A stretch of DNA of 32,000 nucleotides, taken from NCBI RefSeq assembly GCF_009939295.1, contig NZ_WVIC01000013.1:1-32000 (forward strand), in the 5' to 3' direction. This DNA is from Petrachloros mirabilis ULC683. Lineage in GTDB: Bacteria > Cyanobacteriota > Cyanobacteriia > Thermosynechococcales > Thermosynechococcaceae. The notes beneath the pieces were generated by a model. That model was not told where the DNA came from, made no database searches, and was given only the letters and a program-made list of their open reading frames with translations. Positions 1 to 29,537 of this stretch are shown one piece after another (within the stretch, counting starts at the first letter, position 1; each line of letters starts with the position of its first letter). A program made the position numbers and the translations under genes.

Positions 1-46
1 CGCAAGTCTGGTAACTTAGCACATTTTCTTGATCTTTTTCTTGCGC

Positions 47-463
47 TTACCCTGCTTTCACTCCCAGCCCTTGATAGACTTTGAGTTTGTCAATACTGCC
101 ACTGCTAATCACGATCTCAATGGCCAAATCTGGAAGTTCTTTGCGAGTTCCAATGCAATAGCTTTCATCCGGTTCCAGTCCTCTTGCTGCCGCTTCTTGC
201 CTAAATGTCGCCGAGCCGCAGCTAAACAAATCAATATCTCGCTCCAGGGCATAGGTCTCTAATAGACGCGCAATCATTTTTTTAAGCATCTCATGCTCAG
301 GAGAGATGGTCATGATCTCCAGATTTCCCTCCAGATAGGTGAGGCGCAGGCGAGGGCGATCGCCAAACATTGCAATCAGGGTTTCGTATTGCTGCCAGCT
401 CACATGGGGCAGAAAAATTCGCTCCTCAATGAGGGGGTCGAGCGGTTTTGCCAGCACAGTCAT
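47..463 (-). CDS. Uma2-family (DUF820) PD-(D/E)xK putative endonuclease, short form of 138 aa that appears to lack the C-terminal ~45 aa of the family
   Basis: Family-typical blocks are present: LEGNLEIMTISPEHE, GLEPDESY, PDLAIEIVISSGSIDKLKVYQGLGV. The ORF stops where the full-length paralogue at 15995-16567 continues with EYLLID plus ~45 aa. Its ATG (461-463) overlaps the upstream gene's TGA (460-462) as ATGA. Confidence 0.7.
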   Translation of the reverse strand: MTVLAKPLDPLIEERIFLPHVSWQQYETLIAMFGDRPRLRLTYLEGNLEIMTISPEHEMLKKMIARLLETYALERDIDLFSCGSATFRQEAAARGLEPDESYCIGTRKELPDLAIEIVISSGSIDKLKVYQGLGVKAG

Positions 464-2031
464 TGGCTCACCTCTAAGGGAATGTAAAAGTCCATGGCTT
501 CGATCGCATCAAAATAACCGCAGGTATTATCTAGCCACCCCTGTTCTGCCAGCGGGGATTTCAGTCTGCGATCGCTACCAGGCATTGGGGGAAGTGCCTC
601 TCGCTGATAAGCCGTTAAAAACTCTTTGGTTGCCGCTGACCCTCGTCTCAGCACCTCTCGGAGTGCCATCACTTTATTTCGCTTCTCTTTCCAGTCTTCT
701 CCTGTAAATGCTTTGATGATGGCTTCAAAATTTGCCCAATTTTGCCAATCACCGGGGTCAGCATGTAGCAGAAGCGGTCGCATTTCCAAGTGCTTCAAGT
801 GCTTATTGTCCTGAATACGGTATTCCCGTTCCCGAATTTCTGCTAAATCACCCAGCAACCCACTGGCTACGATATGCCAGTCAATGGCAGAAGCAGGTTC
901 CAGACGCTCACCTCCGCTCCGGTCGCGTTTGGCAACTTTTTTTGCAGATCGACACAGGGCTTCACTGAGTTCATAGGCTCTGGCGAAGGGATAGTGTGCT
1001 TTCACAATGCAAACGCCAGCACAGGCTGTCAGTGGTTTACCGTCTGCAATCGGTTGTGTTTCAAATAACTGAAGGGCGCGAACCGCCAGTGTTAACCCTA
1101 GACGACCATCGCAGACAAACGTAATATCATCTCCACCGTAAACCAACGGACGGAAGGGTAATTGTTGGGTTGTCAGGTCTAGTTTTTCTTGGAGAGTGTC
1201 CCAGTTGGCAATCAGTTCTTGAGTCAACTGCTGGAGCACAGCTTTCCCAGCTTTTTCAACACTCTGAGAAAGGTCGCGCATGGCAGTGATGTAGTCTTTG
1301 TCGTTTTTACCCTCGGCAAATCCCTGAAATCTTTTTCCCATACTGTTGCCATCTATATGCACGACGGCAAGGTAGCTCATTTCGTCCCTGGAACGTCCAA
1401 AGGCGTCGAAGTCTAAAGGAATATCCCATCCATCGGGCAGGTGCAGTGTTTGTTGCAATTGCGTATTGGCAAGCTTGACAGCATCTAGTTTTGCCACAAT
1501 TTCTCTGGAAACCGGATAGTCCGCAGGTGAACTATGATTCTTTCTCTGATCGACTGCCACCAAGCGAGTTGAGTTGCAGTCTTGCGTCACACCCAAACCT
1601 AAGAGAGGAGAAGAGGGGATGCGCGATCGCTTCTTCACATCCAGGTCATCTTTCATCATTTCCTGGACTATATCGTAAAGCTGATCTTGATCCCACTCAA
1701 AATCATGGCGATGAGCAACAACCAGGTTAATCCCTGGCGCTTCTTTCAGAACCTTAAGACTGAGTTTTTTCGTGAAGTCGATGGCCAAGTCAGCCGACTG
1801 AAACAGTAAGACGGTGTTACCACCTCCAGCATAAACTAGCTCTGCATCCTGAGTTTTAATCGAGGCTTCAGGGTTCGTAATCTTAAATTTCTGATTCAAA
1901 ATTTGCCTGACCCAGGCATCCGTCACCTGCCCAACCAGATAGGACGCGCCAATATTTTCTCGAAGACGGTTGCTGCCGAAAATATAGGACTGTATTCCAG
2001 TGGTGTCGAGAACTGTCACGGTTAATTTCAT
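460..2031 (-). CDS. Cas10-like / mCpol-like nucleotide cyclase with two tandem GGDEF-type palm domains and no HD domain
   Basis: 523-aa ORF. The N-terminus VLDTTGIQSYIFGSNRLRENIGASYL matches the Cas10 Palm1 signature (D-x2-GIQ-x-[FY]-I-F ... R..x.S.L). Palm1 carries YAGGGNTVLLF rather than GGDD. Palm2 carries VVHIDGNSMGKRF and VYGGDDITF (GGDD = nt 1126-1137). No HD motif and no Cys-rich zinc finger are seen. There is a ~170-aa helical C-terminal region. Both gene junctions are ATGA overlaps. Confidence 0.75.
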   Translation of the reverse strand: MKLTVTVLDTTGIQSYIFGSNRLRENIGASYLVGQVTDAWVRQILNQKFKITNPEASIKTQDAELVYAGGGNTVLLFQSADLAIDFTKKLSLKVLKEAPGINLVVAHRHDFEWDQDQLYDIVQEMMKDDLDVKKRSRIPSSPLLGLGVTQDCNSTRLVAVDQRKNHSSPADYPVSREIVAKLDAVKLANTQLQQTLHLPDGWDIPLDFDAFGRSRDEMSYLAVVHIDGNSMGKRFQGFAEGKNDKDYITAMRDLSQSVEKAGKAVLQQLTQELIANWDTLQEKLDLTTQQLPFRPLVYGGDDITFVCDGRLGLTLAVRALQLFETQPIADGKPLTACAGVCIVKAHYPFARAYELSEALCRSAKKVAKRDRSGGERLEPASAIDWHIVASGLLGDLAEIREREYRIQDNKHLKHLEMRPLLLHADPGDWQNWANFEAIIKAFTGEDWKEKRNKVMALREVLRRGSAATKEFLTAYQREALPPMPGSDRRLKSPLAEQGWLDNTCGYFDAIEAMDFYIPLEVSQ

Positions 2032-3356
2032 CCGCCAGCCTCCGCATCACTCTCTCGAATCCATTGCTCAATTTTTGCAGATAGATTGAGTAAATCCTCA
2101 CATCCAAATACGGTCAGCTTACTGTCGCCTTGAGTATTAGAATCAGGGTTTGATTTGAAAACATTGGTGATCTCTGTTTTCAATGCATCCGTATCTTTCT
2201 TGTTTGCACAGCAGACTAAAGCAACCCTTGCTTCATCACCTCCTAATTGCCGCGCTCGAATATAAGACTCAAATAGCTTTTGCTTACATCCAGGTTTCTC
2301 ATCAATCGTTGTACATGAAAGGGCAAATAGCTGATAGCCTCTAGTAAAAGCAACATCAAATTGAAACTTTGTTCTGTTCTCAGCGCTAGCGGGGTCTTTA
2401 ATCCAAAAGGAAGCTGCACTCTCATATATTTTGAGTGCTTTTGGAACTTCCTGGACTTGCTGCAAAGTGTAATCTTCCAGCCATTCTCCATCTAGCCACT
2501 TACAGAGATTGGATAGATCTTTGAATCCTGCTTTCTGAATCTCCTGTAGTGAAATTGTATTATCAGCGTCGGAGCATCCAAGCATTTTTAGAGCTGCAAT
2601 AATTTTGGAATAGTTTTTTAGAGAAGCTTTCGGCCCGATTTCTGAATCAGAAGGTATTTCCAAAGATAGAGGGGCAACTTCTTTTAATTCTTTTTCCTTT
2701 AGCCATCTGCCCTGTCTATTACGAGTAGCCTTACGCAGCACTGTGTTACACCATTCACGCCATGATTTTCCTAGTTCAGGATAGGCATGGAATTGGGCAA
2801 ATGCTGAAGCTGCTTCTGGACTAGTCGGTGTATAGTCTGGATCAGATAGCCATTGCCAGCCGTGAATCTGGAAAATTTTAGGTATCTTGACTTCTAAATC
2901 CTCAGGATGAACTTTGAGGCGAATACGATCGCCCTCTTCGCGATCAACGCACATTTCTAATTGTCGCGGATCAAGATAACTGAAAACTGCTTGCTGTCCC
3001 TTCTCTTTGAACATGGCACGATAGGCGTGGACTGCCATAGCCTTCGTGCCGCCTGTGTAATTCAGTCCGACTTGTCCATTAAGTTCCTTCAGAGCTTGCT
3101 GAATTCTGGTTTGAATTTGGTAGGCATCAGATTCATACTCTTCCAGAGGGACTAACTGAGCCTGTTGAAAGCCAGTTAGCTCGCTATCCAAAATCTTTTT
3201 TAGTCGCTGAGCGGGTCTTTCAGTTCCAGTGGTATAGATCAGATAGGGGGTGCCACCTCCTTTGAGCAGCAGCCTGGTTGCCATATAGTTCGGCAAGGGG
3301 TTTTCGCCGATTAGCAGAAAGAGAGAATCGACTTTATAGCTATCAAATTCAGCCAT
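2028..3356 (-). CDS. CARF-domain protein fused to a DUF1887/Card1/Can2-like PD-(D/E)xK-fold domain
   Basis: 442-aa ORF. N-terminal Rossmann-like CARF features: LFLLIGENPLPNY and LNYTGGTKAMAVHAY (TGGTK ligand loop). C-terminal blocks typical of Card1/Can2: DGEWLEDY, FQFDVAF, QLFALSCTTIDEK, QLGGDEARVALVC. Sampled GC (~33-48%) is lower than the flanks. Confidence 0.75.
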   Translation of the reverse strand: MAEFDSYKVDSLFLLIGENPLPNYMATRLLLKGGGTPYLIYTTGTERPAQRLKKILDSELTGFQQAQLVPLEEYESDAYQIQTRIQQALKELNGQVGLNYTGGTKAMAVHAYRAMFKEKGQQAVFSYLDPRQLEMCVDREEGDRIRLKVHPEDLEVKIPKIFQIHGWQWLSDPDYTPTSPEAASAFAQFHAYPELGKSWREWCNTVLRKATRNRQGRWLKEKELKEVAPLSLEIPSDSEIGPKASLKNYSKIIAALKMLGCSDADNTISLQEIQKAGFKDLSNLCKWLDGEWLEDYTLQQVQEVPKALKIYESAASFWIKDPASAENRTKFQFDVAFTRGYQLFALSCTTIDEKPGCKQKLFESYIRARQLGGDEARVALVCCANKKDTDALKTEITNVFKSNPDSNTQGDSKLTVFGCEDLLNLSAKIEQWIRESDAEAGG

Positions 3357-8259: not shown

Positions 8260-9003
8260 ATGAGAGATTATAATCTTAGTTTTATAAGTAATGAAGACAT
8301 TTATAATCATGTCAAGGAAACCGTAAATAAATACAGATTTAATATCAACTTAGCTGAATTTAACAGAAATTTAGTAGATCCAATAAAATTGACATTTGAT
8401 ACAAAAATTTATCATAAAGATATTAAATTTATAATAGAAAGTGAGGTGTTAAGACAAATAGATAAATCCAATACAAATCATATTGGATATTTTCATCAAA
8501 ATATATTTCGATATTTGGGTAACGGATGGGAAGTTCCTTCAAAAGGATATGACATTGTTAATTCTAAATTCATGTATTTTGTTGAAATGAAAAACAAGCA
8601 TAATACCATGAATTCTTCATCTGCTCAGAAGACTTACATGAGAATGCAAAATACTTTACTATCTAATCCAGATGCAACCTGTCTGCTAGTAGAAGTAATT
8701 GCACGAAGAAGTCAAAATATTGTATGGAAAATGAGTTTAGATGGTCAAGCTGTGTCAAACAAAAGAATACGTCGGGTTTCCATTGATAGATTTTATGAAT
8801 TGGTGACTGATAGCCGAGTTGCATTTAAAGAATTATGTGAAAAGCTTCCTTTAATAATTCAAGATGTTGTCGAGGATAGCAATTTTGAAGCAGAGTCTAA
8901 CTCAGTATTCACAGAGTTAAGAGCCATTGATTCTAACTTATGGAAAAGTATTTATTTGCTTTCATTTAGAGAATATGAAGGATTTAATGATTTCAATATT
9001 TGA
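8260..9003 (+). CDS. Type II restriction endonuclease of the PD-(D/E)xK class (possibly Eco47II/Sau96I-like, unverified)
   Basis: GYDIVNSKFMYFVEMKNKHNT gives D98-x10-E109-x-K111 (nt 8551-8592). It lies directly upstream of, and overlaps, a C5 methyltransferase gene. GC is very low (~23-35% in sampled lines). Confidence 0.65.
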   Translation: MRDYNLSFISNEDIYNHVKETVNKYRFNINLAEFNRNLVDPIKLTFDTKIYHKDIKFIIESEVLRQIDKSNTNHIGYFHQNIFRYLGNGWEVPSKGYDIVNSKFMYFVEMKNKHNTMNSSSAQKTYMRMQNTLLSNPDATCLLVEVIARRSQNIVWKMSLDGQAVSNKRIRRVSIDRFYELVTDSRVAFKELCEKLPLIIQDVVEDSNFEAESNSVFTELRAIDSNLWKSIYLLSFREYEGFNDFNI

Positions 9004-10303
9004 TTCAGATCTAATTTCAGCAGAATTGGTAGCAGATATAATTTCCGTATCCAAAGCCACACTATTAAAGTGGGAAAAAGGTGGAAGATTAATTCCTTTT
9101 CAAAATCCCATCACGAACAAAAAAGAATATAAGACTTCTCAGCTCATTCAATTTGAAGAAGTCAGAAGCATGTTCAAAAGTAATTGGGATGAAGAATTGA
9201 GGGTTAAGCCTGCGAGAGACTTTTCATCAGTTGAACTTTTTGCGGGGGCAGGAGGACTTGCTCTAGGGTTAGAAAAAGCTGGATTCAATACAATAGCTCT
9301 CAATGAACTTGATGAAGATGCTTGTAAAACTCTTCAAGCCAATCGTCCCAAATGGAATGTCATTGAAGGTGACGTGAAAAATGTGGATTTTAGTAAATTC
9401 ATTGATATTGATCTTGTTTCTGGTGGATTTCCATGTCAAGCATTTTCTTATGCAGGGGAAAAATTGGGATTTGAAGATACCAGAGGTACGTTATTTTTTG
9501 AATTTTCCAGGGCAGTAAAAGAAATAAGACCAAAAATTTTCTTAGGTGAAAATGTGCGTGGCTTATTAAATCACGACAATGGAAAAACTTTGTCCGTTAT
9601 GAAATCAATTATTTCAGATCTAGGATATACACTTATTGAGCCAAAAGTTCTGAAAGCATTGTTTTATCGTGTTCCCCAAAAAAGAGAGCGTTTATTTTTT
9701 GTTGGCATCAGAAACGATTTGATTAGGTTTGCAAAATTTAAATGGCCATCACCCTATTACAGAATACTCGTTCTCAAAGACGCTTTGAAAGCTGGTGAAC
9801 TATACGATACCGATGTACCAGAATCAGAAGGTCAGTCTTATCCCAACAGAAAAAGAGAAATATTATCTCATGTGCCTCAAGGTGGCTATTGGAGAGATTT
9901 ACCAGATAACTTGCAAAGAGAATATATGCAGGGTAGTTATTTCTTAAGTGGTGGTAAAACTGGCATGGCACGTCGGCTCTCATGGGATGAGCCGAGCTTA
10001 ACTTTGACCTGTTCCCCCGCTCAAAAACAAACCGAAAGATGTCATCCAGAAGAAACGAGACCCTTAACGATTAGAGAGTATGCCAGAATACAAACTTTCT
10101 CAGACGAATGGTGTTTTTCAGGTTCAGTGAGTAGTCAATACAAACAAATTGGTAATGCAGTGCCCGTAAATTTAGCTTATGCAGTTGCTCGAAGTATAGT
10201 CGCGCTATTAAATAGTATTGACGCAAAAGTCGATCTAGAGGGTAATTTCTTAGCATCTAGTGAGTTATTTCAACCAAGGCAACTGACTTTGCTAAACACA
10301 TAA
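8975..10303 (+). CDS. DNA (cytosine-5) methyltransferase with an N-terminal excisionase/MerR-type HTH extension
   Basis: Canonical m5C motifs: I ELFAGAGGLALG, IV GGFPCQAFS, VI ENVRGLL, VIII QKRERLFFVG, X YKQIGNAVPV. An N-terminal ~85 aa carries ISVSKATLLKWEKGGRLIP. The start is uncertain: ATG 8975 or 8987 is likelier than the track start at 8927. Confidence 0.9.
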   Translation: MKDLMISIFDSDLISAELVADIISVSKATLLKWEKGGRLIPFQNPITNKKEYKTSQLIQFEEVRSMFKSNWDEELRVKPARDFSSVELFAGAGGLALGLEKAGFNTIALNELDEDACKTLQANRPKWNVIEGDVKNVDFSKFIDIDLVSGGFPCQAFSYAGEKLGFEDTRGTLFFEFSRAVKEIRPKIFLGENVRGLLNHDNGKTLSVMKSIISDLGYTLIEPKVLKALFYRVPQKRERLFFVGIRNDLIRFAKFKWPSPYYRILVLKDALKAGELYDTDVPESEGQSYPNRKREILSHVPQGGYWRDLPDNLQREYMQGSYFLSGGKTGMARRLSWDEPSLTLTCSPAQKQTERCHPEETRPLTIREYARIQTFSDEWCFSGSVSSQYKQIGNAVPVNLAYAVARSIVALLNSIDAKVDLEGNFLASSELFQPRQLTLLNT

Positions 10304-21451: not shown

Positions 21452-21790
21452 CCAATCAGAATAACAACGACCAGGCGCTACCCCATGGCACTCGCCCTAG
21501 ATCGCATCAACACGTTCGTTCATTGTAGAAACAAAGTTGTCACTGGCCAGTGTTTTCAGTCCCCGATCAATTTTTTTTAATTTTTATGTAGTCTTGCCAA
21601 CAGTCTTAAGAACCCTCGGGGATCAAGGGCAGCCTAGCAAATACAGACCTATCTGAGGAAAGAAAAAAGACGACCTAGAGCTCGCCTAGCCTCAGAGGGG
21701 TATTTTAGGTGCGTTGCTTGAGCCACCTCATGGGTGGGTTTCATAGCGCGCGCAGTTAGGGCATCGTACATGCAACTGAAGGGACGAACT

Positions 21791-23032
21791 ATGGGCTTAG
21801 AGCAAGCGTCGAAAATACAAGGTGTTTTATCTCCCCAACAACTCCTGCCAGAGGTCTTACATCAAATTGCCAGCGCATCGTTTCAGGGCTGCCTCTGGGT
21901 CAAACACCAAGCAGTCACTTGGGCAATCTATATCCAAAACGGTCATCTCAACTATGCCACCCATTCCATTGACCCCACAGATCGCCTGGACAGCCAGTTG
22001 CGACGATTAAGTCATCAACTACCAGCGCTAACCGATGCAGTTCGTACCCAAACCCGCCTCATGCTGGATGTGCACACACCGATACAGGGACAACCGAGCC
22101 TAGATTACCAAGCCATTGAAACCTTGGTCGAGCAGCAGCATCTCACCGTAGCCGATGTAAACACCCTTATCACCCGACTCTCCCGAGAGGCTCTCTTATT
22201 TGCGTTTACCCTAACAGAAGGCAGCTATCACTTTCAGCCCGAAGCAGGCATTCAGTCACCATTGTGCCAGCTACCCCTATTGTCTTTGATTGATCATTGC
22301 CAAAAATATCTGCGTGCTTGGCAGTCTCTTGGTCCAGAAATCAGCTCTCCAAATCAGAAACTATACTTCTCAAGCCAAAAATATGCTCATCCTAGGTTAT
22401 CACCCGAGCAAGCCCGCAGACTTGGGAAATTGTTGCGTGGCTTTAGCTTTAGGCATTTAGAGGCCATCTTAGATCAAGATGCCATTAAAATTGCTCAAAG
22501 TCTATATCCATTGATTATGGATCGCACGATTTTATTGCGAGAGCCACAGCATCCCTTTAATCAACTTCCTAAAATCCTAGACTTCAATCAACACTCTCAT
22601 TCCAAAAACACAACGCCCGAAGTAGAGACAGAACTAGATGTCTTGGTCAATCAAGAATCAAGTCAAAAAATCTATCGAATTGCCTGCATTGATGATAGTC
22701 CGAGTGTATTAAATGCTATTCAGAATTTTTTGGATGATGAATCTATATCTCTGACGTTAATCAACAATCCAGTTCGAGCTTTAGTTGAAATCATTCGAGT
22801 CAAACCTCATTTAATTCTGTTGGATGTTGGTATGCCTAGGGTTGATGGCTATGAACTCTGTCGATTAATTCGACGCAATTCTTCTTTCAAAGCAGTTCCC
22901 ATCGTTATGGTGACTGGAAATACGGGTTTAATTGACCGAGCAAGAGCAAAGGTTTCTGGTGCAACAGATTATATGACAAAGCCTTTTACTCAAGAAGAAT
23001 TATCCAAAATGGTGTTTCGCTATCTGAGTTAA
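21791..23032 (+). CDS. PatA-type response regulator (N-terminal PATAN/DUF4388 + C-terminal REC), PilG/PixG/HmpA class
   Basis: N-terminal FQGCLWVKHQAVTWAIYIQNGHLNYATHS. C-terminal REC with IACIDDS, LILLDVGMPRVDGYEL, IVMVTGN and YMTKPF. Alternative starts are GTG 21734 and ATG 21770. Confidence 0.8.
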   Translation: MGLEQASKIQGVLSPQQLLPEVLHQIASASFQGCLWVKHQAVTWAIYIQNGHLNYATHSIDPTDRLDSQLRRLSHQLPALTDAVRTQTRLMLDVHTPIQGQPSLDYQAIETLVEQQHLTVADVNTLITRLSREALLFAFTLTEGSYHFQPEAGIQSPLCQLPLLSLIDHCQKYLRAWQSLGPEISSPNQKLYFSSQKYAHPRLSPEQARRLGKLLRGFSFRHLEAILDQDAIKIAQSLYPLIMDRTILLREPQHPFNQLPKILDFNQHSHSKNTTPEVETELDVLVNQESSQKIYRIACIDDSPSVLNAIQNFLDDESISLTLINNPVRALVEIIRVKPHLILLDVGMPRVDGYELCRLIRRNSSFKAVPIVMVTGNTGLIDRARAKVSGATDYMTKPFTQEELSKMVFRYLS

Positions 23033-23210
23033 AAACTTACAAGATTTCACTCATTCAAATTTATGATAATTTTTCTTGTCTATAATTTATCTAAATTTTT
23101 CTTTATTGATCTGTTTTTATGATCTTTGGGAACACTAATTATAGATTAATAGTTTGCAGACAATTCTGCTCAATCTATACATTCGTAACTATTCCTTGAG
23201 GCTCTGCGAC

Positions 23211-23573
23211 ATGAGAAAAGTTCTGGTGGTTGATGATACAGCTTCTGAACTAGAGTTAATGTCTATATATTTGCGCGAAAGTGGCTACACAGTCATCAAT
23301 TCTAGTGATGCCAAAGATGCTTTGAACAAAGCAATTTCTTTACAGCCAGATGTAGTTATAACAGATGTTGTCATGCCTGGAATGAGTGGATTTGAGTTGT
23401 GCAGAACTCTAAAAAAAACAGAGCAAACCAAGAAAGTTCCTGTTGTGGTTTGCACCTCTAAGAATCAAGAGCTTGACCGACTGTGGGGCATGAAGCAAGG
23501 GGTAGATGTCTATGTGACGAAGCCCTTTAGTCGAGAGGAATTAATTCGCGCTGTTCAATCGGTGGTGGCCTAA
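23211..23573 (+). CDS. CheY-like single-domain response regulator (PilH class)
   Basis: KVLVVDDT, VVITDVVMPGMSGFEL, VVVCTSK, VYVTKPF. The start is taken at the internal ATG 23211 of the track ORF. Confidence 0.85.
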   Translation: MRKVLVVDDTASELELMSIYLRESGYTVINSSDAKDALNKAISLQPDVVITDVVMPGMSGFELCRTLKKTEQTKKVPVVVCTSKNQELDRLWGMKQGVDVYVTKPFSREELIRAVQSVVA

Positions 23574-23577
23574 AGCA

Positions 23578-24081
23578 ATGAGTATGACCCTTTCAGCCGG
23601 GTGGGTCGCACCCCAAGTGGGGACAGGGGGCGATCCCTACCTGAAGCTGAGGCTGGATGCCGAAATAACCGCTTTAATTCCCATGGTCTTTGCTCAAGAA
23701 GTCTTGGTGGTGCCTGAAGAGCGGCTAACCCTGATTCCTAACATGCCTGCTTGGGCACTGGGGTTACTCAATCAGCGCAGCCGGGTTTTTTGGGTGGTCG
23801 ATTTGCTGCGCTTGTTCAATCAGGATGCCTTTGCCGTCAGCCAGCGACTCTACAACATTGTGATTTTACGGGCAGACCAAATGCCTCTGGGCATTGCTGT
23901 TCCCCAGGTGAATGGTGTGCTGCGGTTTCCATCGGAGGCATTGCAATCTCCGGTGGGCGCTGTCTCAGATCATCTCACGCCCTATTTACGCGGATGTGTG
24001 CCCTGGGAAAACGACATTTTATTGGTTCTTGATCCCCAGGCAATTGTGCGGGCGGCTGTGCGGGCAGGCAGCGCAGGGTAG
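23578..24081 (+). CDS. CheW-like coupling protein (PilI class)
   Basis: YLKLRLDAEITALIPMVFAQEVLVV...IPNMPAWALGLLNQRSRVFWVVDL...LGIAVPQVNGV...LLVLDPQAI, the CheW domain pattern. Confidence 0.8.
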   Translation: MSMTLSAGWVAPQVGTGGDPYLKLRLDAEITALIPMVFAQEVLVVPEERLTLIPNMPAWALGLLNQRSRVFWVVDLLRLFNQDAFAVSQRLYNIVILRADQMPLGIAVPQVNGVLRFPSEALQSPVGAVSDHLTPYLRGCVPWENDILLVLDPQAIVRAAVRAGSAG

Positions 24082-24124
24082 AGATGCAAATACACGTTGA
24101 GATTGATAGAGGTGACAAAGGTCA

Positions 24125-25798
24125 ATGACACTTTTCAAAGATGAACACATGCCGAGCGACCACGCTGAACAAACCCCGACTGAATGGGTGACGCTGGAGC
24201 CAGCACAAGCCACTGTTACGGAGCTGGCACAGGCTGGGGAAGACCACAGCCCAGACGCACTAACCCAAGTCACCCCTTCCCTCACGGGACAGCAATTTAA
24301 AGGGTTGCGGGCGAAGGTGACCGTGGCTGCGATCGCACTCAGCACCATTCCCCTCGCCATCACGGGCGGCATCACCTGGAGCGCAGTTCAAAGCGCCATC
24401 CCAGCACCAGAGACAGCACCAGAGACAGCAGCAGTCCAGCAACCCGGAGCGGCCACCACCAACCGCCTACTTCTGATTCTGATGGCAAATCTGGTCGTGA
24501 CTGCTGCCGCCGTCGGCTGGATCGCTTGGCTCTTGAGTGAACGCGCCACCCAACCCCTGACAAAAGCTACCCAGGCCATTCAAGCTATTCGCCAAGGGGA
24601 CTTAGACACTCGTCTTAGCGTCACCCCCGAAGATGAGCTAGGGCATCTGGCCACCCAAATCAATGAGATGGCCGAGCATTTGCAAAATCAAGCGCAGGAG
24701 CAAGCCCTTGCCCTCCAGAAAGAGCGAGAAGTCCACGCTGAAGTCATGGCCCAACAAGCCGCAGCCGCTGAGCGCGATCACCAACAAAACCTGGCTCTCC
24801 AACAAGAACTGTTGCAGTTGCTCTCAGAAGTCGAAGGAGCCACCAGCGGCAACTTGATGGTACGGGCTGAGATTGGTGAAGGCCAAATCGGCATTGTCGC
24901 CGACTTTTTCAACTCCATTATTGAGAGTATGCGCGACATTGTTACCCAAGTGAAAGCGGTGACTGTTGAAGTGAACAGCGCCCTGGGACAAGACGAGGCC
25001 GCCATTGGTGATCTGGCCAAGGAGTCCAGTAAACAAGCGAAAAAAATTCAGCGGATGCTCACCTTTGTCGAGCAAATGGCGCAGTCTATTGCAGCCGTGG
25101 CCAGCAACGCCCACGAAGCCGCTGAAGTGGCGCGCAATGCCTCTAGCACTGCCGAAACCGGTGGAGAAGCTATGGATCGGGTGGTGCAAAGTATTGTCCA
25201 GCTTCGAGAAACGGTGGCTGAAACCGCCAAGAAGGTGAAGCAACTCGGTGAGTCTTCGCAGCAAATTTCCAAGGCTGTGTCTTTGATTAACCAAATCGCC
25301 CTGCAAACCAACCTGCTAGCCATCAACGCCAGTATTGAAGCCGCGCGAGCAGGCGAAGAAGGTCGAGGCTTTGCGGTGGTGGCCGAAGAAGTGGGGGCAT
25401 TAGCGGCTCAATCAGCCACCGCCACCAAGGAGATTGAAAAAATTGTGGAATTGATTCAACGCTCTACCAGCGAGGTGGTCGATGCCATGGAGCGGGGCAC
25501 CACCCAGGTGGTCGAAGGCAGTGGCCGGGTGGAGGAGGCCAAACACAGCTTGGAGCAAATTATTAGCGTTTCCCACGACATTGACCAGTTGGTGCAATCT
25601 ATTTCCACCGCCACTGTGTCTCAAGCCAAAACCTCTGATCTGGTGAAGGCGCTGATGCAAGACATTGTGAAGACCTCTGAGGAATCCTCCAAATTTTCTA
25701 ACCGGGTCGTCACATCCATCCACGAAACGGCTGGCCTGGCCCAGCAACTCAAAACCTCTGTGGATGTGTTCAAAGTGAGTGAAGCTGTTGAAGTTTAA
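24125..25798 (+). CDS. Methyl-accepting chemotaxis protein (2 TM + HAMP + MA signalling domain) with a minimal extracytoplasmic loop
   Basis: TM helices [19 protein letters not shown] and [23 protein letters not shown] flank a ~25-aa loop. HAMP block [13 protein letters not shown]...[13 protein letters not shown]. Highly conserved MCP tip [37 protein letters not shown]. Confidence 0.9.
24404..24427 (+). repeat. Perfect 12-bp tandem duplication encoding APET-APET in the MCP loop
   Basis: GCACCAGAGACA occurs at 24404-24415 and again at 24416-24427. Confidence 0.9.
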
Positions 25799-25815
25799 TT
25801 GCTCACTGTTGGGTT

Positions 25816-25851
25816 GGCAATTTTCTAAACCCTAAAATTGCCGTCATTTTT
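25816..25851 (+). terminator. Possible weak intrinsic terminator after the MCP gene
   Basis: GGCAATTTT (25816-24) / AAAATTGCC (25834-42) form a 9-bp stem with a 9-nt loop, followed by GTCATTTTTA. The stem is AT-rich, so it is weak. Confidence 0.35.
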
Positions 25852-25880
25852 AATCCTTATCAAAAAGCGAGGAATTTATC

Positions 25881-26204
25881 ATGTTAGCCAATAGCACTGC
25901 CACCAAAGTTTATAAGGTCACCTTGGTCAACGAGAAGCACAATCTACGCGAAACCATTCGAGTTCAAGATGACGAGTACATTTTTGATATAGCCGAGCAA
26001 AAAGGCTTGAAGCTACCGGTTTCTTGTCGAGCCGGTGCCTGCGTCAGTTGTGTGGGGCGCATTACTCAGGGTGAAGTGGATCAAGATCACTCCTTTTTGA
26101 CAGCCAAAGAACTAGATGCGGGGTTTGTCTTGACCTGTCGCGCCATGCCGCTCTCTGATTGCGTGATTGAAACCCATCAAGAAGATGCCCTGCTCGATCT
26201 CTAG
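25881..26204 (+). CDS. Plant-type [2Fe-2S] ferredoxin
   Basis: YKVTLVNE..., cluster ligands in SCRAGACVSCVGRI and LTCRAMP, C-terminal ETHQEDAL. GAGGA Shine-Dalgarno sequence 8 nt upstream. Confidence 0.85.
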   Translation: MLANSTATKVYKVTLVNEKHNLRETIRVQDDEYIFDIAEQKGLKLPVSCRAGACVSCVGRITQGEVDQDHSFLTAKELDAGFVLTCRAMPLSDCVIETHQEDALLDL

Positions 26205-26354
26205 TCGGTTGTGTACCGGTCAAGACGAGTTTGATTCAGTCTTAGCTACCAAGTCCAAATATCTCGGCTCTTGCCCCCTCAATCCCCTTTTTCCAGAGCG
26301 GCAGAAGGAGATTGAGGGGAAAGACCTAAGAGCTTGTTTGAGAAGTTGCTTAGA

Positions 26355-26474
26355 CCTTGCACTCCGCCCCCCTAGCCCCCCAATTCTGGGGGGAAATGGT
26401 CAGAGCTTTTGGCTTTCTCCCCCCAAAATTGGGGGGTCGGGGGGCTAATGCAGGGATGAATGAGGCTTTTCAAA
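26355..26474 (+). repeat. Second copy of the C/G-run hairpin repeat family also found inside the MITE at 10461-10584
   Basis: Shared collinear blocks: CCT(T)GCAYTC(C)GCCCCC, CCCCC(C)A(A)TTCTGGGGG(G), CCCCCCAAA(A)TTRGG, GAGGCTTTTMAA. Both copies are in the same orientation. Confidence 0.55.
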
Positions 26475-26576
26475 CGGCCTCTAACAGCAATAGCTTCAGG
26501 GGCTGGAGCCAACCAAACTAGCCTGAATAACTGCTCTTAAAAGGGTCTGCATAGACTTTTACCAACAGGGAAAATA

Positions 26577-29537
26577 ATGCCACAGGATAGTGAACAACAG
26601 GTGCGGCTCCAGTTTTTAGAGGAAGCCCAAGACTATCTGCACCAGATTGAAGCGGAACTGTTGAATTTCGAGTCCCAGGGAAATCAGCAGCAAGCTTTGA
26701 ATGCCATGCTGCGTGCGGCTCATTCTATTAAGGGTGGGGCTGGCTTGATGGGGTTTCCTTACCTGAGTCAGTTTGCACACCGGTTTGAGGACTTCCTGAA
26801 GGTTTTGAAGGTGAGTCGCCCCGCTGTGGATAGCAGTCTAGAACAGGAACTGCTGCGTGCCGTTGATGACATGGGGCAGGTGGCGACTGCCTACCGACAG
26901 CACGGAACGGTGGCGGAGGACTGGGTACAAACCGCGATTACGCCCATCTTTGATCGCCTGCACCAGCGGCTTGGAGATCCACAACCCGAAGATGCCGCTG
27001 CCCTGCTCTCGGAAGAAGTGGGGGAAGACATGACCCGACTGTTGTTTGAAAGTGAGGTGGAAGCCTGTTTACAACGGCTAGAGGCTGTGACCCAGCAGCC
27101 AGAGATGCCTTGCTTGGTAGAGGAGGTGGAGATCGCAGCCCAAGAACTGGCTGGCTTAGCAGAAATGCTGGATCTGTCAGCTTTTCAGAGTCTCTGTCAA
27201 TCTGTGTCTGAGCAATTGCAAGCAGCACCTACCCCTACCCAAGGGGGAGACATTGCCCAATTAGCCATTCAGCAATGGCGGCGATCGCAGGCACTGGTCT
27301 TGGTGGGGCAAGCCACGGCAATTCCCACCCAACTGGAGCGGGAAGCCATTCCTCATGAGACACCCATTCAGTCAGTTAGCAAGGGTCTCCCAGACTGGCT
27401 AGATACACATCTGAGCGAGCCTGATTTGCCTGAGTCTCTGACTGCTTCGGAAGCGGTCTCCTTGCTGGCAGATTTAGAAACAGACTTCGAGGCAGGCTTG
27501 GAGACCGGGGTAGAAGCTCCACTCTCACGGTCTGCACCACAACAGTCTGCACCAGGCAGGGTGTTATCTCCTCAAAAAGCAGCTTTAGAATCGGAGTTCT
27601 CTGAACCTTCTGTCACCCCAGGTGATACAGAGCAAACGATTCGGGTTCCTGTGCATAAACTCAGCCAATTGAGTGAATTATTTGGGGAATTGATCATCGA
27701 GCGCAATGGGCTATCCCTACAGTTGCAACGCCTGCGCGATCTGATGGGATTGCTCAACCAGCGGGTACAGACCCTAGAGCAATCGAATGATCAGCTCCGC
27801 AGTGCCTGCGATAGTCCAAGACTGGCCTACGGCCATCGCACCACTGCTCAAGGCGAGTTGCCCCAACTCATTGGTGCCGCCCTCTCAGGGATCTCTGCCA
27901 CCCTGGGCGAGCGCTTTGATGGACTAGAGATGGATCGCTACAGCGAGTTACATCTGTTTTCCCAAGAATTGAGCGAAACCGCCGTGCAAATCCAGGAAGT
28001 CACCACCGACATGAACCTCAGTCTGGAGGACGCCGAGCAAACTGCCCGCGCCCTGACGCGCACCAGCAAGCAACTGCAAAGCACTATGACCCAGGTGCGG
28101 ATGCGCCCCCTCTCAGACCTACTCTCTCGGATTCCCAGGGTGCTGCGCGACCTCAGCCATACCTACGGCAAGCAAGTCGATCTGAACATCACGGGCGGCT
28201 CTACCCTCATCGACCGTGCCATTCTGGAAGCCCTGCACGATCCTTTGATTCATCTGCTTCGCAACGCCTTTGACCATGGCATTGAACCCCCGCACATCCG
28301 CACCGCTCAGGGCAAACCGGAGCAGGGACTGATTGAGATTAAGGCCGCCTATCGTGGCAACCAAACTGTCCTCATACTACAGGACGACGGAGCAGGCATC
28401 GATCTCGACAAAATCAAAGCCCGAGCGCTGATGATGGGACTCGACGACGCCGTGCTCAACCGCGCCAGCACCCAAGAGCTACTGGAACTCATTTTTGAGC
28501 CAGGCTTCAGCACCGCAGATCAAGTAACCGACCTCTCAGGCCGGGGGGTGGGCATGGACGTGGTTCGCACCCAACTCAAACAAGTCCGGGGCAACATCAC
28601 CGTCGATACCCGACCGGGTCAAGGCACCACCATGACCTTGACGGTGCCTTTCACCCTCTCGGTTCTGCGGGTGCTGCTAGTGGAAGTGCAACAAATGCTA
28701 TTGGCCATCCCCACCAACGCTGTTGAAGAAATGGTGTTGTTGGCCTCGCAGCAACTTCGTCGGCAGACGGGCAGACCTCTACTGAACTGGGAAGGACTGC
28801 TAGTGCCCCTATTAAATTTGAAAGACTGGTTACGAATGCCCCGGGTGCCCCATTTACCCGAATCAGACGCCAGCCCTACCATTGACGAACCCCTGGTGCT
28901 GATGGTGGCTCATGGTGAAGACATAATGGGTCTACAAGTGGATCGCTACTGGGGCGAACAGGAAGTCACCATCCGTCCTGTGGAAGGTCAGCTCCCGCTG
29001 CCGCCTGGTTTTGTTGGATGCACGATTCTGGGCAATGGGCGCATTGTGCCGCTGGTCGAGCCGGTGAATTTACTGCGCTGGATCGAGGAGCAACAGGCTC
29101 AGTCCCCGACGCAGAGCTTGACAATGCCCCCAACACCCATCACCACTGCCCCCAGCACCCCGTTGATTTTAATTGTGGATGACTCGGTTAACGTGCGCCG
29201 CTTTTTGGCGCTCACTCTAGAAAAAGCGGGCTACCGGGTCGAGCAAGCCAAGGATGGTCATCATGCCTTGGAAAAACTGCGGGCAGGTCTGTCAGCCCAA
29301 GCGGTCATTTGTGACATTGAAATGCCCCGCCTAGACGGCTACGGATTTCTCGCCCATGCTAGGGCAGATCAGCGCTATCAGTCTCTGCCGATCCTGATGC
29401 TCACCTCTCGCAGTGGCCACAAACATCGGCAGTTGGCTATGACTCTGGGTGCAACAGCCTATTTTTCTAAGCCTTTCCAAGAAACTGAGTTGTTGGCCAC
29501 CCTACAGCAAGTGATCGCCAATCCGATGCTTGCTTAA
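26577..29537 (+). CDS. Hybrid CheA-like histidine kinase (Hpt - long linker - HATPase - CheW-like - REC), PilL/HmpE class
   Basis: Hpt LRAAHSIKGGAGLMGF. Kinase boxes LIHLLRNAFDHGIE, DDGAGID, GRGVGMDVV. CheW-like region ~residues 700-830. C-terminal REC with LILIVDDS, VICDIEMPRLDGY, LMLTSR, FSKPF. Confidence 0.9.
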   Translation: MPQDSEQQVRLQFLEEAQDYLHQIEAELLNFESQGNQQQALNAMLRAAHSIKGGAGLMGFPYLSQFAHRFEDFLKVLKVSRPAVDSSLEQELLRAVDDMGQVATAYRQHGTVAEDWVQTAITPIFDRLHQRLGDPQPEDAAALLSEEVGEDMTRLLFESEVEACLQRLEAVTQQPEMPCLVEEVEIAAQELAGLAEMLDLSAFQSLCQSVSEQLQAAPTPTQGGDIAQLAIQQWRRSQALVLVGQATAIPTQLEREAIPHETPIQSVSKGLPDWLDTHLSEPDLPESLTASEAVSLLADLETDFEAGLETGVEAPLSRSAPQQSAPGRVLSPQKAALESEFSEPSVTPGDTEQTIRVPVHKLSQLSELFGELIIERNGLSLQLQRLRDLMGLLNQRVQTLEQSNDQLRSACDSPRLAYGHRTTAQGELPQLIGAALSGISATLGERFDGLEMDRYSELHLFSQELSETAVQIQEVTTDMNLSLEDAEQTARALTRTSKQLQSTMTQVRMRPLSDLLSRIPRVLRDLSHTYGKQVDLNITGGSTLIDRAILEALHDPLIHLLRNAFDHGIEPPHIRTAQGKPEQGLIEIKAAYRGNQTVLILQDDGAGIDLDKIKARALMMGLDDAVLNRASTQELLELIFEPGFSTADQVTDLSGRGVGMDVVRTQLKQVRGNITVDTRPGQGTTMTLTVPFTLSVLRVLLVEVQQMLLAIPTNAVEEMVLLASQQLRRQTGRPLLNWEGLLVPLLNLKDWLRMPRVPHLPESDASPTIDEPLVLMVAHGEDIMGLQVDRYWGEQEVTIRPVEGQLPLPPGFVGCTILGNGRIVPLVEPVNLLRWIEEQQAQSPTQSLTMPPTPITTAPSTPLILIVDDSVNVRRFLALTLEKAGYRVEQAKDGHHALEKLRAGLSAQAVICDIEMPRLDGYGFLAHARADQRYQSLPILMLTSRSGHKHRQLAMTLGATAYFSKPFQETELLATLQQVIANPMLA

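Follow-up and report, generated by a model that had tools for sequence, protein, structure and literature searches.

A 523-residue protein of Petrachloros mirabilis belongs to the short, HD-less Cas10 family of cyanobacterial type III-D complexes

Introduction

[quoted passage not shown] PCC 6803, which has no working HD domain, keeps its GGDD motif, makes cyclic oligoadenylate (cOA) only in the presence of target RNA, and activates Csx1 (PMC11026444). A D308A/D309A mutant of that Cas10 loses Csx1 activation, the C-terminus of the solved protein is helical and small-subunit-like, and an HD domain is predicted to be missing from most Cas10 proteins of type III-D (PMC11026444). A Cas10 with neither HD domain nor finger is already known; for type III-D it has been described as the norm. 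Cas10-type palms also occur in mCpol, where a single palm homodimerises and is constitutively active, without the regulatory or C-terminal region of Cas10 (PMC12657230).

We analysed a 32,000-nucleotide stretch of the genome of Petrachloros mirabilis ULC683 (contig NZ_WVIC01000013.1, positions 1 to 32,000), here called the window. An earlier note on this DNA had described one of its genes as a Cas10-like enzyme reduced to two palm domains. We find that the encoded protein, 523 residues long, is a typical representative of the short HD-less Cas10 proteins that cyanobacterial type III-D complexes contain, a large family characterised before. Very probably it is the Cas10 large subunit of a III-Dv-like effector in which cas7 and cas5-cas11 are separate genes, making cOA on target RNA. 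The gene lies 460 bases from the window edge, so that a reader given only the window cannot see its defining neighbours.

Results

The open reading frame at 460..2031 on the minus strand is identified as cas10 from the ORF call together with profile, PDB sequence and fold matches; it encodes the large subunit, here without an HD domain, of a III-Dv-like CRISPR-Cas effector of type III-D. The AlphaFold model of the 523-residue protein (pLDDT 84.7, pTM 0.87) shows two beta-alpha-beta-beta-alpha-beta palm units in a single chain and a mainly helical C-terminal part, bearing out the tandem-palm layout proposed in the earlier note, with neither a single-palm nor a non-polymerase fold. According to the secondary structure of the model, Palm1 comprises residues 1-135 (1627..2031, minus strand), with strands at 2-11, 63-69, 72-77 and 102-112, helices at 23-49, 80-97 and 118-135, and a degenerate GGGN loop at 69-72. 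Since its first strand already begins at residue 2, there is no N-terminal HD domain. The inter-palm linker (residues 136-215; 1387..1626, minus strand) includes a low-confidence loop, with pLDDT values of 37-69 over residues 140-170, and it carries an invariant motif. C152 is the sole cysteine between the palms and the remaining ones lie at 307, 337, 341, 360 and 504, a distribution that leaves no zinc finger or other four-cysteine finger there; the absence of an HD domain and of a treble clef had been read correctly beforehand, as had the single inter-palm cysteine.

Palm2, the cyclase domain, spans residues 216-390 (862..1386, minus strand), with GGDD at 299-302 encoded, according to the translation, at 1126..1137 on the same strand; the Pfam model Cas10-Cmr2_palm2 matches residues 220-371 (E 6.6e-14). 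The motifs quoted earlier, including GGGN and GGDD, all sit where they had been placed: LDTTGIQSYIF at 8-18, YAGGGNTVLLF at 67-77, HIDGNSMGKRF at 225-235 and YGGDDITF at 298-305, and the C-terminal stretches beginning HADPGDW and LKSPLAEQGW at 423-442 and 490-508. The earlier division into two palms and a C-terminal part stands, but its boundaries shift: the model carries Palm2, through a helix at 349-368 and a strand at 382-387, to about residue 390 rather than 350, so that the C-terminal domain (residues 391-523; 463..861, minus strand) has about 133 residues and not 170. It is mainly helical in the model (432-443, 451-462, 465-474, 488-497 and 507-516) and we read it as a Cas11-like (D4-type) Cas10 domain.

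This open reading frame is a real, conserved gene. Among the candidates scored, 2743 homologues were found at E<=1e-5; at E<=1e-30 the family counts 1340 cluster representatives. GGDD is invariant across the family alignment (60 members); also invariant in the family are G70, G71 and N72 of the Palm1 loop and the linker motif P142-L143-x-G145-L146-x-x-T149-x-x-C152-x-S154. At the 195 alignment columns with at least 90% conservation, the window protein deviates three times, compared with a median of four for the other members.

The PADLOC profile Cas10d (PDLC02057) matches the protein end to end, aligning residues 3-520 with profile positions 2-461 of 462 (E 4e-148). Its best PDB sequence match is the Synechocystis III-Dv Cas10 (8s9t_C, E 2e-31), with which its GGDD aligns, and its best fold match is chain C of 8s9t/u/v/x (E 5e-29, TMq 0.78-0.79), followed in the listed matches by chains from Csm/Cmr effector complexes of type III. 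Conversely, hmmsearch with the family profile aligned residues 4-554 of the 558 in Synechocystis Cas10 (E 1e-61). The earlier view that the protein is neither a canonical Cas10 nor obviously a single-palm mCpol was right in doubting mCpol and in pointing to the missing HD domain and finger; it missed that the protein is a regular Cas10 subunit of type III-D.

Two other assignments were considered and rejected. An mCpol has to be discarded, since one chain holds two palms and mCpol is absent both from the sequence matches at E<=1 and from the fold matches listed. A GGDEF diguanylate cyclase finds no place either, as no GGDEF family appears among the Pfam matches at E<=1, where Cas10-Cmr2_palm2 is the sole palm match.

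To place the gene in its genomic setting, we used 84 related loci for neighbourhood counts, each count being limited to loci with enough flank; 92 loci were fetched in total, many of them short. The scan of genome contigs, with a single-protein query, yielded one locus, and the metagenome scan used an alignment as query. Directly downstream of cas10 and on the same strand, cas7/cas5 genes are present in 74/74 loci, cas5-cas11 follows in 61/61, and the full set of cas5-cas11, cas7-2x, csx19 and cas7-insertion in every one of the 38 loci whose downstream sequence reaches 7 kb or more (38/38). The family thus lies inside type III loci wherever the flank suffices, an occurrence that the earlier note had itself set beforehand against its proposal of a C-terminal sensor replacing the Csm/Cmr-crRNA input; with the chain also matching III-Dv Cas10 in fold, that proposal falls. 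Directly upstream of cas10, a Can2-like CARF nuclease is encoded in 63 of 65 loci, and likewise in the window.

The 85%-identical orthologue of Trichothermofontia sichuanensis (L002) illustrates the arrangement, with can2, cas10, uma2, cas7, cas5-cas11, cas7-2x, a 224-residue gene, csx19, uma2 and cas7-insertion, to which PADLOC assigns Cas7_IIId, Cas5_IIId (Csx10), Cas7_IIId (double Csm3), Csx19 and a Cas7_IIId with a gRAMP-like part. The same gene order is found on Synechocystis pSYSA and on an Anabaena cylindrica plasmid, where cas6 and an array of 40 repeats lie next to it. L002, L004 and the majority of related loci encode Cas7 (~217-230 residues) and Cas5-Cas11 (~531-548 residues) in separate adjacent genes, and not as the single Cas7-Cas5-Cas11 polypeptide of the Synechocystis III-Dv prototype. 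Among the 92 fetched loci, many of them short, CRISPR arrays were detected in 11, L004 and L005 being two of these, and cas6 is present in a few.

The C-terminal domain is best read as a helical Cas11-like tail, as in the solved III-Dv Cas10, a modelled assignment based on fold and position and not on sequence. The whole-chain TMq of 0.78-0.79 exceeds the ceiling of 0.746 that would apply if the 133 C-terminal residues were left unsuperposed, which supports this reading, as do the helical content of the domain and the Cas10d profile, which reaches residue 520. Taken alone, the domain matched no PDB sequence in a search with a 13-sequence profile (best E 0.37, a xylanase), and a 60-sequence C-terminal profile scored 1.7 bits against Synechocystis Cas10, below shuffled controls (up to 5.6). 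Its isolated model, which is poor (pLDDT 62.9), gave no fold match at E<=0.001, and Cmr5 and Csm2, with E values of 4-5, carry no weight as evidence. Because the domain alone gave no match, the equivalence of R458 with R490, which are paired in the full-length alignment, is only tentative.

Within the window, cas10 is enclosed by two minus-strand genes, a can2-like gene (2028..3356; 442 residues) and uma2 (47..463; 138 residues); the can2 stop overlaps the cas10 start, and the cas10 stop overlaps the uma2 start, each in an ATGA. The can2-like protein combines CARF and PD-(D/E)xK nuclease domains and is a predicted cOA receptor (PADLOC CARF4--CARF_PDDEXK, E 7e-155), with Pfam scores just below gathering thresholds. 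Its closest solved relative is TbrCan2 (8q3y, E 8e-25), a nuclease activated only by cA4. From the E-ExD-SxTTS-K motif, 6 of the 7 residues checked are present (E294, D334, S347, T349, T350 and K358), and the equivalent of TbrCan2 E341 is Q332, as in 16 of 82 orthologues. Such an E-to-Q exchange at a metal-binding position in the linked nuclease, which we regard as clade-wide, may be of interest to specialists, as may the Uma2 genes that are embedded in the effector operon and decay there. A promoter and terminator scan returned 7 sites against 5.0 expected, no better than chance; one promoter-like site lies at 3416-3389, in the cobB-can2 spacer.

In this clade, uma2 lies between cas10 and cas7. 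The window copy (Pfam Uma2, E 3e-13) is truncated: its alignment to the 201-residue copy of T. sichuanensis ends after residue 136, and the blastn match between the two loci spans window positions 3347 to 57 only. The tail at 1..56 occupies the place at which one would look for cas7 and the remaining effector genes. It is without homology to related loci, and no copy of it turned up in the 92 loci or in the rest of the window; the breakpoint is at ~56/57. Effector genes are absent from the window, which ends 56 bases beyond the breakpoint, and its 32 kb hold no CRISPR array, cas6, cas1 or WYL regulator.

These features bear on the state of the locus, not on the identity of the gene. It is a serious, if tentative, possibility that cas10 is a type III-D Cas10 by descent whose operon was broken within uma2, through either an insertion or a deletion, with cas7, cas5 and csx19 gone and the can2-cas10 pair inactive and awaiting decay. 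The cut at residue 136 of 201, followed by 56 bases unrelated to any relative, fits such an event, as does the absence of the WYL regulator found upstream in L002 and L003, with cobB abutting can2 in the window. Moreover, no cas5-cas11 from the same sample (SRR11067108) is on record in the seven clusters closest to the L002 cas5-cas11, of which nine members were looked up, none of them on a 92,890-base contig, but missing from the record does not prove absence. Against decay, both cas10 and can2 remain intact; their start and stop codons overlap, and their conservation is normal. A Logan contig from that sample stops at window position 26, exactly 31 bases past the breakpoint, and 31 bases is a common assembly word size. 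This contig end therefore suggests a repeated element, for example an IS, with the operon possibly continuing beyond it; that two independent assemblies stop near the breakpoint also argues against a severed operon.

Discussion

Homology, fold, motif conservation and the operon context in relatives point to the Cas10 subunit of a III-Dv-like effector, and from these we infer its activity, the identity of its signal and the persistence of the complex in this genome. As in relatives, Cas10 would join Cas7, Cas5(Csx10)-Cas11, Cas7-2x, Csx19 and Cas7-insertion around a crRNA. Binding of complementary non-self RNA may then activate the inter-palm pocket, where the invariant Palm2 GGDD would use ATP to make a cyclic oligoadenylate, cA4 being the most probable one. 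The product is predicted to bind the CARF domain of the upstream Can2-like nuclease and switch it on. The helical C-terminal domain would play a small-subunit-like role along the Cas7 backbone, and not that of an autonomous sensor; with the HD domain missing, this Cas10 would have no ssDNase arm.

That a complex-bound Cas10 makes another product here, such as the SAM-AMP of type III-D2 and Bacteroides fragilis III-B, seems very unlikely. The related intermediate subtype III-D2 does make SAM-AMP and SAM-AMP2 and no cOA (PMC13294483), but SAM-AMP systems pair with CorA effectors, while the partner here is a Can2-type CARF nuclease (63/65 loci) whose characterised relative answers only cA4, and cOA is the product of Synechocystis III-Dv, which is the closer relative. 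The motif is also GGDD here, whereas the III-D2 catalytic mutant D347A/E348A implies a D-E pair in that Cas10.

A further possibility, which we consider highly improbable, is that the Can2-Cas10 pair survived and works without a crRNA backbone after the operon was cut inside uma2. If true, the pair would be a natural intermediate between a complex-bound Cas10 and free-standing cyclase-effector pairs such as mCpol/Panoptes. We give almost no credence to a CRISPR-independent cyclase whose C-terminal domain senses infection in place of the crRNA complex and signals to the CARF nuclease: free-standing Cas10-like cyclases do exist, in mCpol (PMC12657230) and in type II Panoptes with its CARF-TM effector (PMC13577387), the window holds only can2-cas10-uma2 without effector genes or array, and the C-terminal domain lacks an independent sequence match, but in every testable case the family sits within type III-D effector operons (74/74, 38/38), the whole chain including its C-terminus appears to superpose on a Cas10 solved inside a crRNA complex, and the Cas10d profile already available extends over the C-terminal domain.

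As a III-Dv-like Cas10, the protein is of slight importance beyond its correct annotation, the Synechocystis homologue already having a structure and a cOA assay. The two proteins (523 residues here, 558 in Synechocystis; 8S9T/8S9U/8S9V/8S9X chain C; PMC11026444) are alike in length class and share the lack of a functional HD domain, two palms, GGDD in Palm2, a single linker cysteine and a helical C-terminal domain, and the Synechocystis operon with cas7-2x, csx19 and cas7-insertion is matched in relatives of the window gene. Their identity is nevertheless only 24-28%. Synechocystis has one 791-residue fusion where the clade of the window gene has separate cas7 (~217 residues) and cas5-cas11 (~531 residues) genes; the linked effector is Csx1/Csm6 there and a Can2-type nuclease directly upstream here; this clade has Uma2 genes within the operon, unlike Synechocystis III-Dv; and H487, at cleavage site 3 of Synechocystis, is not conserved according to a tentative alignment.

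Canonical Cas10 proteins (Csm1 of III-A, Cmr2 of III-B) have the same order of Palm1, Palm2 and helical C-terminal domain, as well as GGDD, with fold matches at E 1e-15 to 1e-10. Compared with them, the 523-residue protein lacks the N-terminal HD nuclease and the cysteine-rich inter-palm zinc finger and is ~200-300 residues shorter, and its whole-protein scores remain far below the cut-offs of TIGR02578 (Csm1; 32.7 vs 170) and TIGR02577 (Cmr2; 27.5 vs 79.4).

With mCpol of Panoptes (PDB 9NWN; PMC12657230, PMC13577387) it has in common the Cas10-type palm and the nature of an HD-less cyclic-nucleotide synthase, and the CARF protein partner of type II Panoptes resembles the window pair (PMC13577387). 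It differs in having two palms per chain and a C-terminal domain read as that of Cas10, and its family occurs in crRNA-effector operons; mCpol is partnered by a 2TM-beta or CARF-TM effector, the window family by a Can2 nuclease and RAMP proteins. That nuclease shares the CARF and PD-(D/E)xK architecture of Can2/Card1 (TbrCan2, PDB 8Q3Y) and departs from TbrCan2 in having Q332 for E341. Finally, III-D2 differs in its Cas7x3 and Cas7-5, its lack of Csx19, its CorA effector and its use of SAM-AMP instead of cOA, but its Cas10 belongs to the same series of III-D variants with fused Cas7, which stand between multi-subunit and single-protein III-E effectors (PMC13294483).

The protein is a type III-D Cas10

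The 523-aa open reading frame lies at window positions 460..2031 (-), with its GGDD codons at nt 1126-1137. All six peptide motifs quoted in the earlier note were found at the residues it gave, the single cysteine between the palm regions is C152, and the protein sequence has no N-terminal extension large enough for an HD domain. An AlphaFold2 model built from a family alignment of 60 sequences was confident (pLDDT 84.7, pTM 0.87), and shows a first palm unit (residues 1-135), a partly disordered linker (136-215), a second palm (216-390) and, at the C-terminus, a region made mostly of helices (391-523). The motifs and domain layout had thus been described correctly, except that the C-terminal domain spans ~133 residues rather than 170.

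Pfam recognises only the second palm domain of Cas10/Cmr2 (residues 220-371, E 6.6e-14), and the NCBIfam models for Csm1 and Cmr2 give weak matches, well under their cut-offs. The PADLOC profile Cas10d matches end to end (residues 3-520 against positions 2-461 of a 462-position profile, E 4e-148). Sequence and structure lead to the same relative: the top PDB sequence match is 8s9t chain C, 'Cas10' (E 2e-31), and the predicted fold matches the Cas10 chain of 8S9T, 8S9U, 8S9V and 8S9X (E ~1e-28, TM 0.78-0.79), which represent the type III-Dv effector of Synechocystis sp. PCC 6803 (PMC11026444); behind them come chains from further type III (Csm/Cmr) effector-complex entries. The family profile aligned with residues 4-554 of 558 of the native Synechocystis Cas10 (E 1e-61). 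The family is large: at E<=1e-30 it comprises 1340 cluster representatives (50% identity), nearly all of 510-600 aa with the match reaching residue ~520. The protein is a member of type III-D Cas10 and by homology should work like it; its kind is already known, and the family is already covered by public profiles.

The C-terminal domain is a probable Cas10 helical tail

In the solved III-Dv complex, the Cas10 C-terminus is highly alpha-helical and small-subunit-like, running along the Cas7 filament beside Cas11 (PMC11026444). The C-terminal domain of our protein is helical in the AlphaFold2 model, sits where the solved protein carries this tail, and is traversed by the existing Cas10d profile. 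Had its 133 residues contributed nothing, the whole-chain match could have reached at most 390/523 = 0.746; the observed TMq of 0.78-0.79 is too good to leave the domain out. Together these four lines suggest that this region is the equivalent helical tail. On its own, the domain could be matched by sequence neither to the Synechocystis C-terminus nor to any PDB entry, and its isolated model was too poor for a fold search. Full-length alignment places the invariant R458 opposite Synechocystis R490, which belongs to RNA cleavage site 3, but has no statistical support in this region; their equivalence is a lead only.

The family resides in crRNA-effector operons

Upstream of cas10, a can2-like gene (2028..3356 (-)) encodes a 442-aa CARF plus PD-(D/E)xK protein (PADLOC CARF4--CARF_PDDEXK, E 7e-155); downstream lies a Uma2-family gene (47..463 (-), 138 aa), after which the window ends. 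Both cas10 junctions are ATGA overlaps. The closest complete locus belongs to Trichothermofontia sichuanensis B231, whose genome is complete and whose cas10 orthologue is 85% identical; there a WYL regulator precedes can2-like, cas10, uma2 (201 aa), cas7 (217 aa), cas5/csx10-cas11 (531 aa), cas7-2x (489 aa), a 224-aa gene, csx19, a second uma2 and an insertion-bearing cas7 (739 aa). The same annotated gene order recurs on an Anabaena cylindrica PCC 7122 plasmid, adjoining cas6 and a 40-repeat array, and on Synechocystis pSYSA, but there with cas7, cas5 and cas11 fused.

The earlier note had proposed the C-terminal domain as a candidate sensor or regulatory domain replacing the Csm/Cmr-crRNA activation input. 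We compared 84 related loci (80 metagenomic at 40-55% identity, and four others) with reference proteins by tblastn; as some are near-duplicates, the following counts are not fully independent. A same-strand cas7 or cas5 starts within a few hundred bases of cas10 in 74/74 loci with at least 700 nt of downstream flank, cas5-cas11 is present in 61/61 with at least 2.3 kb, and cas5-cas11, cas7-2x, csx19 and cas7-insertion in 38/38 with at least 7 kb. With zero exceptions among loci with enough flank, the family occurs in complete type III loci, an outcome that the earlier note had named as refuting its proposal. A same-strand can2-like gene lies upstream in 63/65 loci with at least 1.5 kb of flank.

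Further features were seen in related loci, here the T. sichuanensis locus (L002) and L003, L086, L089, L090 and L093. The 224-aa gene between cas7-2x and csx19 (L002 15880-16554, L003 15454-16128, L086 13059-13733) is conserved in the closest relatives, is matched by neither PADLOC nor Pfam, and is missing from the Anabaena and Synechocystis loci. In close relatives, additional type III loci directly adjoin the III-D operon (L002 20291-21563; L086 1-6028 and 16981-21596): downstream, RAMP genes accompany another, longer Cas10 (793-805 aa), and L086 also has a Cmr2/Cmr3/Cmr5-type module upstream. Uma2-family genes, putatively restriction-endonuclease-like (PADLOC PDC-S17), lie inside the operon of the Leptolyngbya-like clade (window 47-463 (-); L002 11560-12165 and 17123-17692; L093 2204-2809). 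The first, between cas10 and cas7, overlaps the cas10 stop codon and reaches its full 201 aa in L002 and L093; L086, L089 and L090 have a 56-aa ORF at this position, its N-terminal part uma2-homologous in L086. The second separates csx19 from cas7-insertion.

The operon breaks off, probably at a contig end

At the DNA level, the T. sichuanensis locus matches the window from position 3347 to 57 only. The window uma2 breaks off after residue 136 of 201; 'AG', a stop codon and 46 unmatched bases come next, and the 56-base tail (1-56) is unrelated to every fetched locus. In Logan, a contig of sample SRR11067108 has the same sequence as the window and stops at position 26, 31 bases beyond the breakpoint. 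Assemblies commonly use a word size of 31, and the length of the 56-base tail is close to another such size, from which we infer that both assemblies stop where a repeated element begins, the window starting at its contig's end. The tail pattern points to the border of a repeated or mobile element and to a contig end.

The effector genes may continue beyond an inserted element. Their loss from the genome is a lesser, though appreciable, possibility. Among the closest clusters, no cas5-cas11 came from sample SRR11067108 or from a 92,890-base contig. The 32 kb window has no WYL regulator, cas6, cas1 or CRISPR array. On the other hand, cas10 has no sign of decay, deviating at 3/195 conserved columns, where other members have a median of 4.

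Proposed signalling

An HD domain is predicted to be missing from most type III-D Cas10 proteins; the Synechocystis III-Dv Cas10 has a large N-terminal truncation and a disrupted HD pocket, and keeps GGDD (PMC11026444). That complex makes cOA only on binding target RNA, activating Csx1, and mutation of Palm catalytic residues abolishes activity, the Cas10 mutant built being D308A/D309A (PMC11026444). By homology, the window Cas10 would be the signal-generating subunit of a III-D-type complex, its product being received by the upstream can2-like nuclease. We favour cA4 as this product, because the closest solved relative of the nuclease, TbrCan2 (8Q3Y, E 8e-25), responds to cA4 but to neither cA3 nor cA6. 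SAM-AMP, the signal of type III-D2, appears unlikely, since those systems pair with CorA.

Within the E-ExD-SxTTS-K motif of the can2-like nuclease, Q332 (codon ~nt 2361-2363) occupies the position of the TbrCan2 metal-binding catalytic E341, giving QxD instead of ExD; the other six motif residues checked are present. This variant is common to 16/82 cas10-linked can2 orthologues, including those of L002, L003, L086 and L090, and is therefore a clade trait, not a lesion.

Other features of the window

An Eco47II-type restriction endonuclease and C-5 cytosine methyltransferase pair (8260-10303 (+)) lies in a markedly AT-rich stretch (GC 0.31-0.37, compared with ~0.50 around it), and looks like a horizontally acquired restriction-modification island amid housekeeping genes. 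A chemotaxis-like signalling cluster unrelated to cas10 (21734-29537 (+)) encodes a DUF4388 response regulator, an MCP with a HAMP domain and a hybrid CheA-CheW-receiver kinase.

Comparison with known systems

Unlike canonical Csm1/Cmr2, the window protein has neither HD nor zinc finger. It is 24-28% identical to the Synechocystis prototype, from which the operons of its kin differ in having unfused cas7 and cas5-cas11. In contrast to mCpol, the minimal CRISPR polymerase of Panoptes systems, it combines two palms and a Cas10 C-terminal domain in one chain, and its family sits within crRNA-effector operons.
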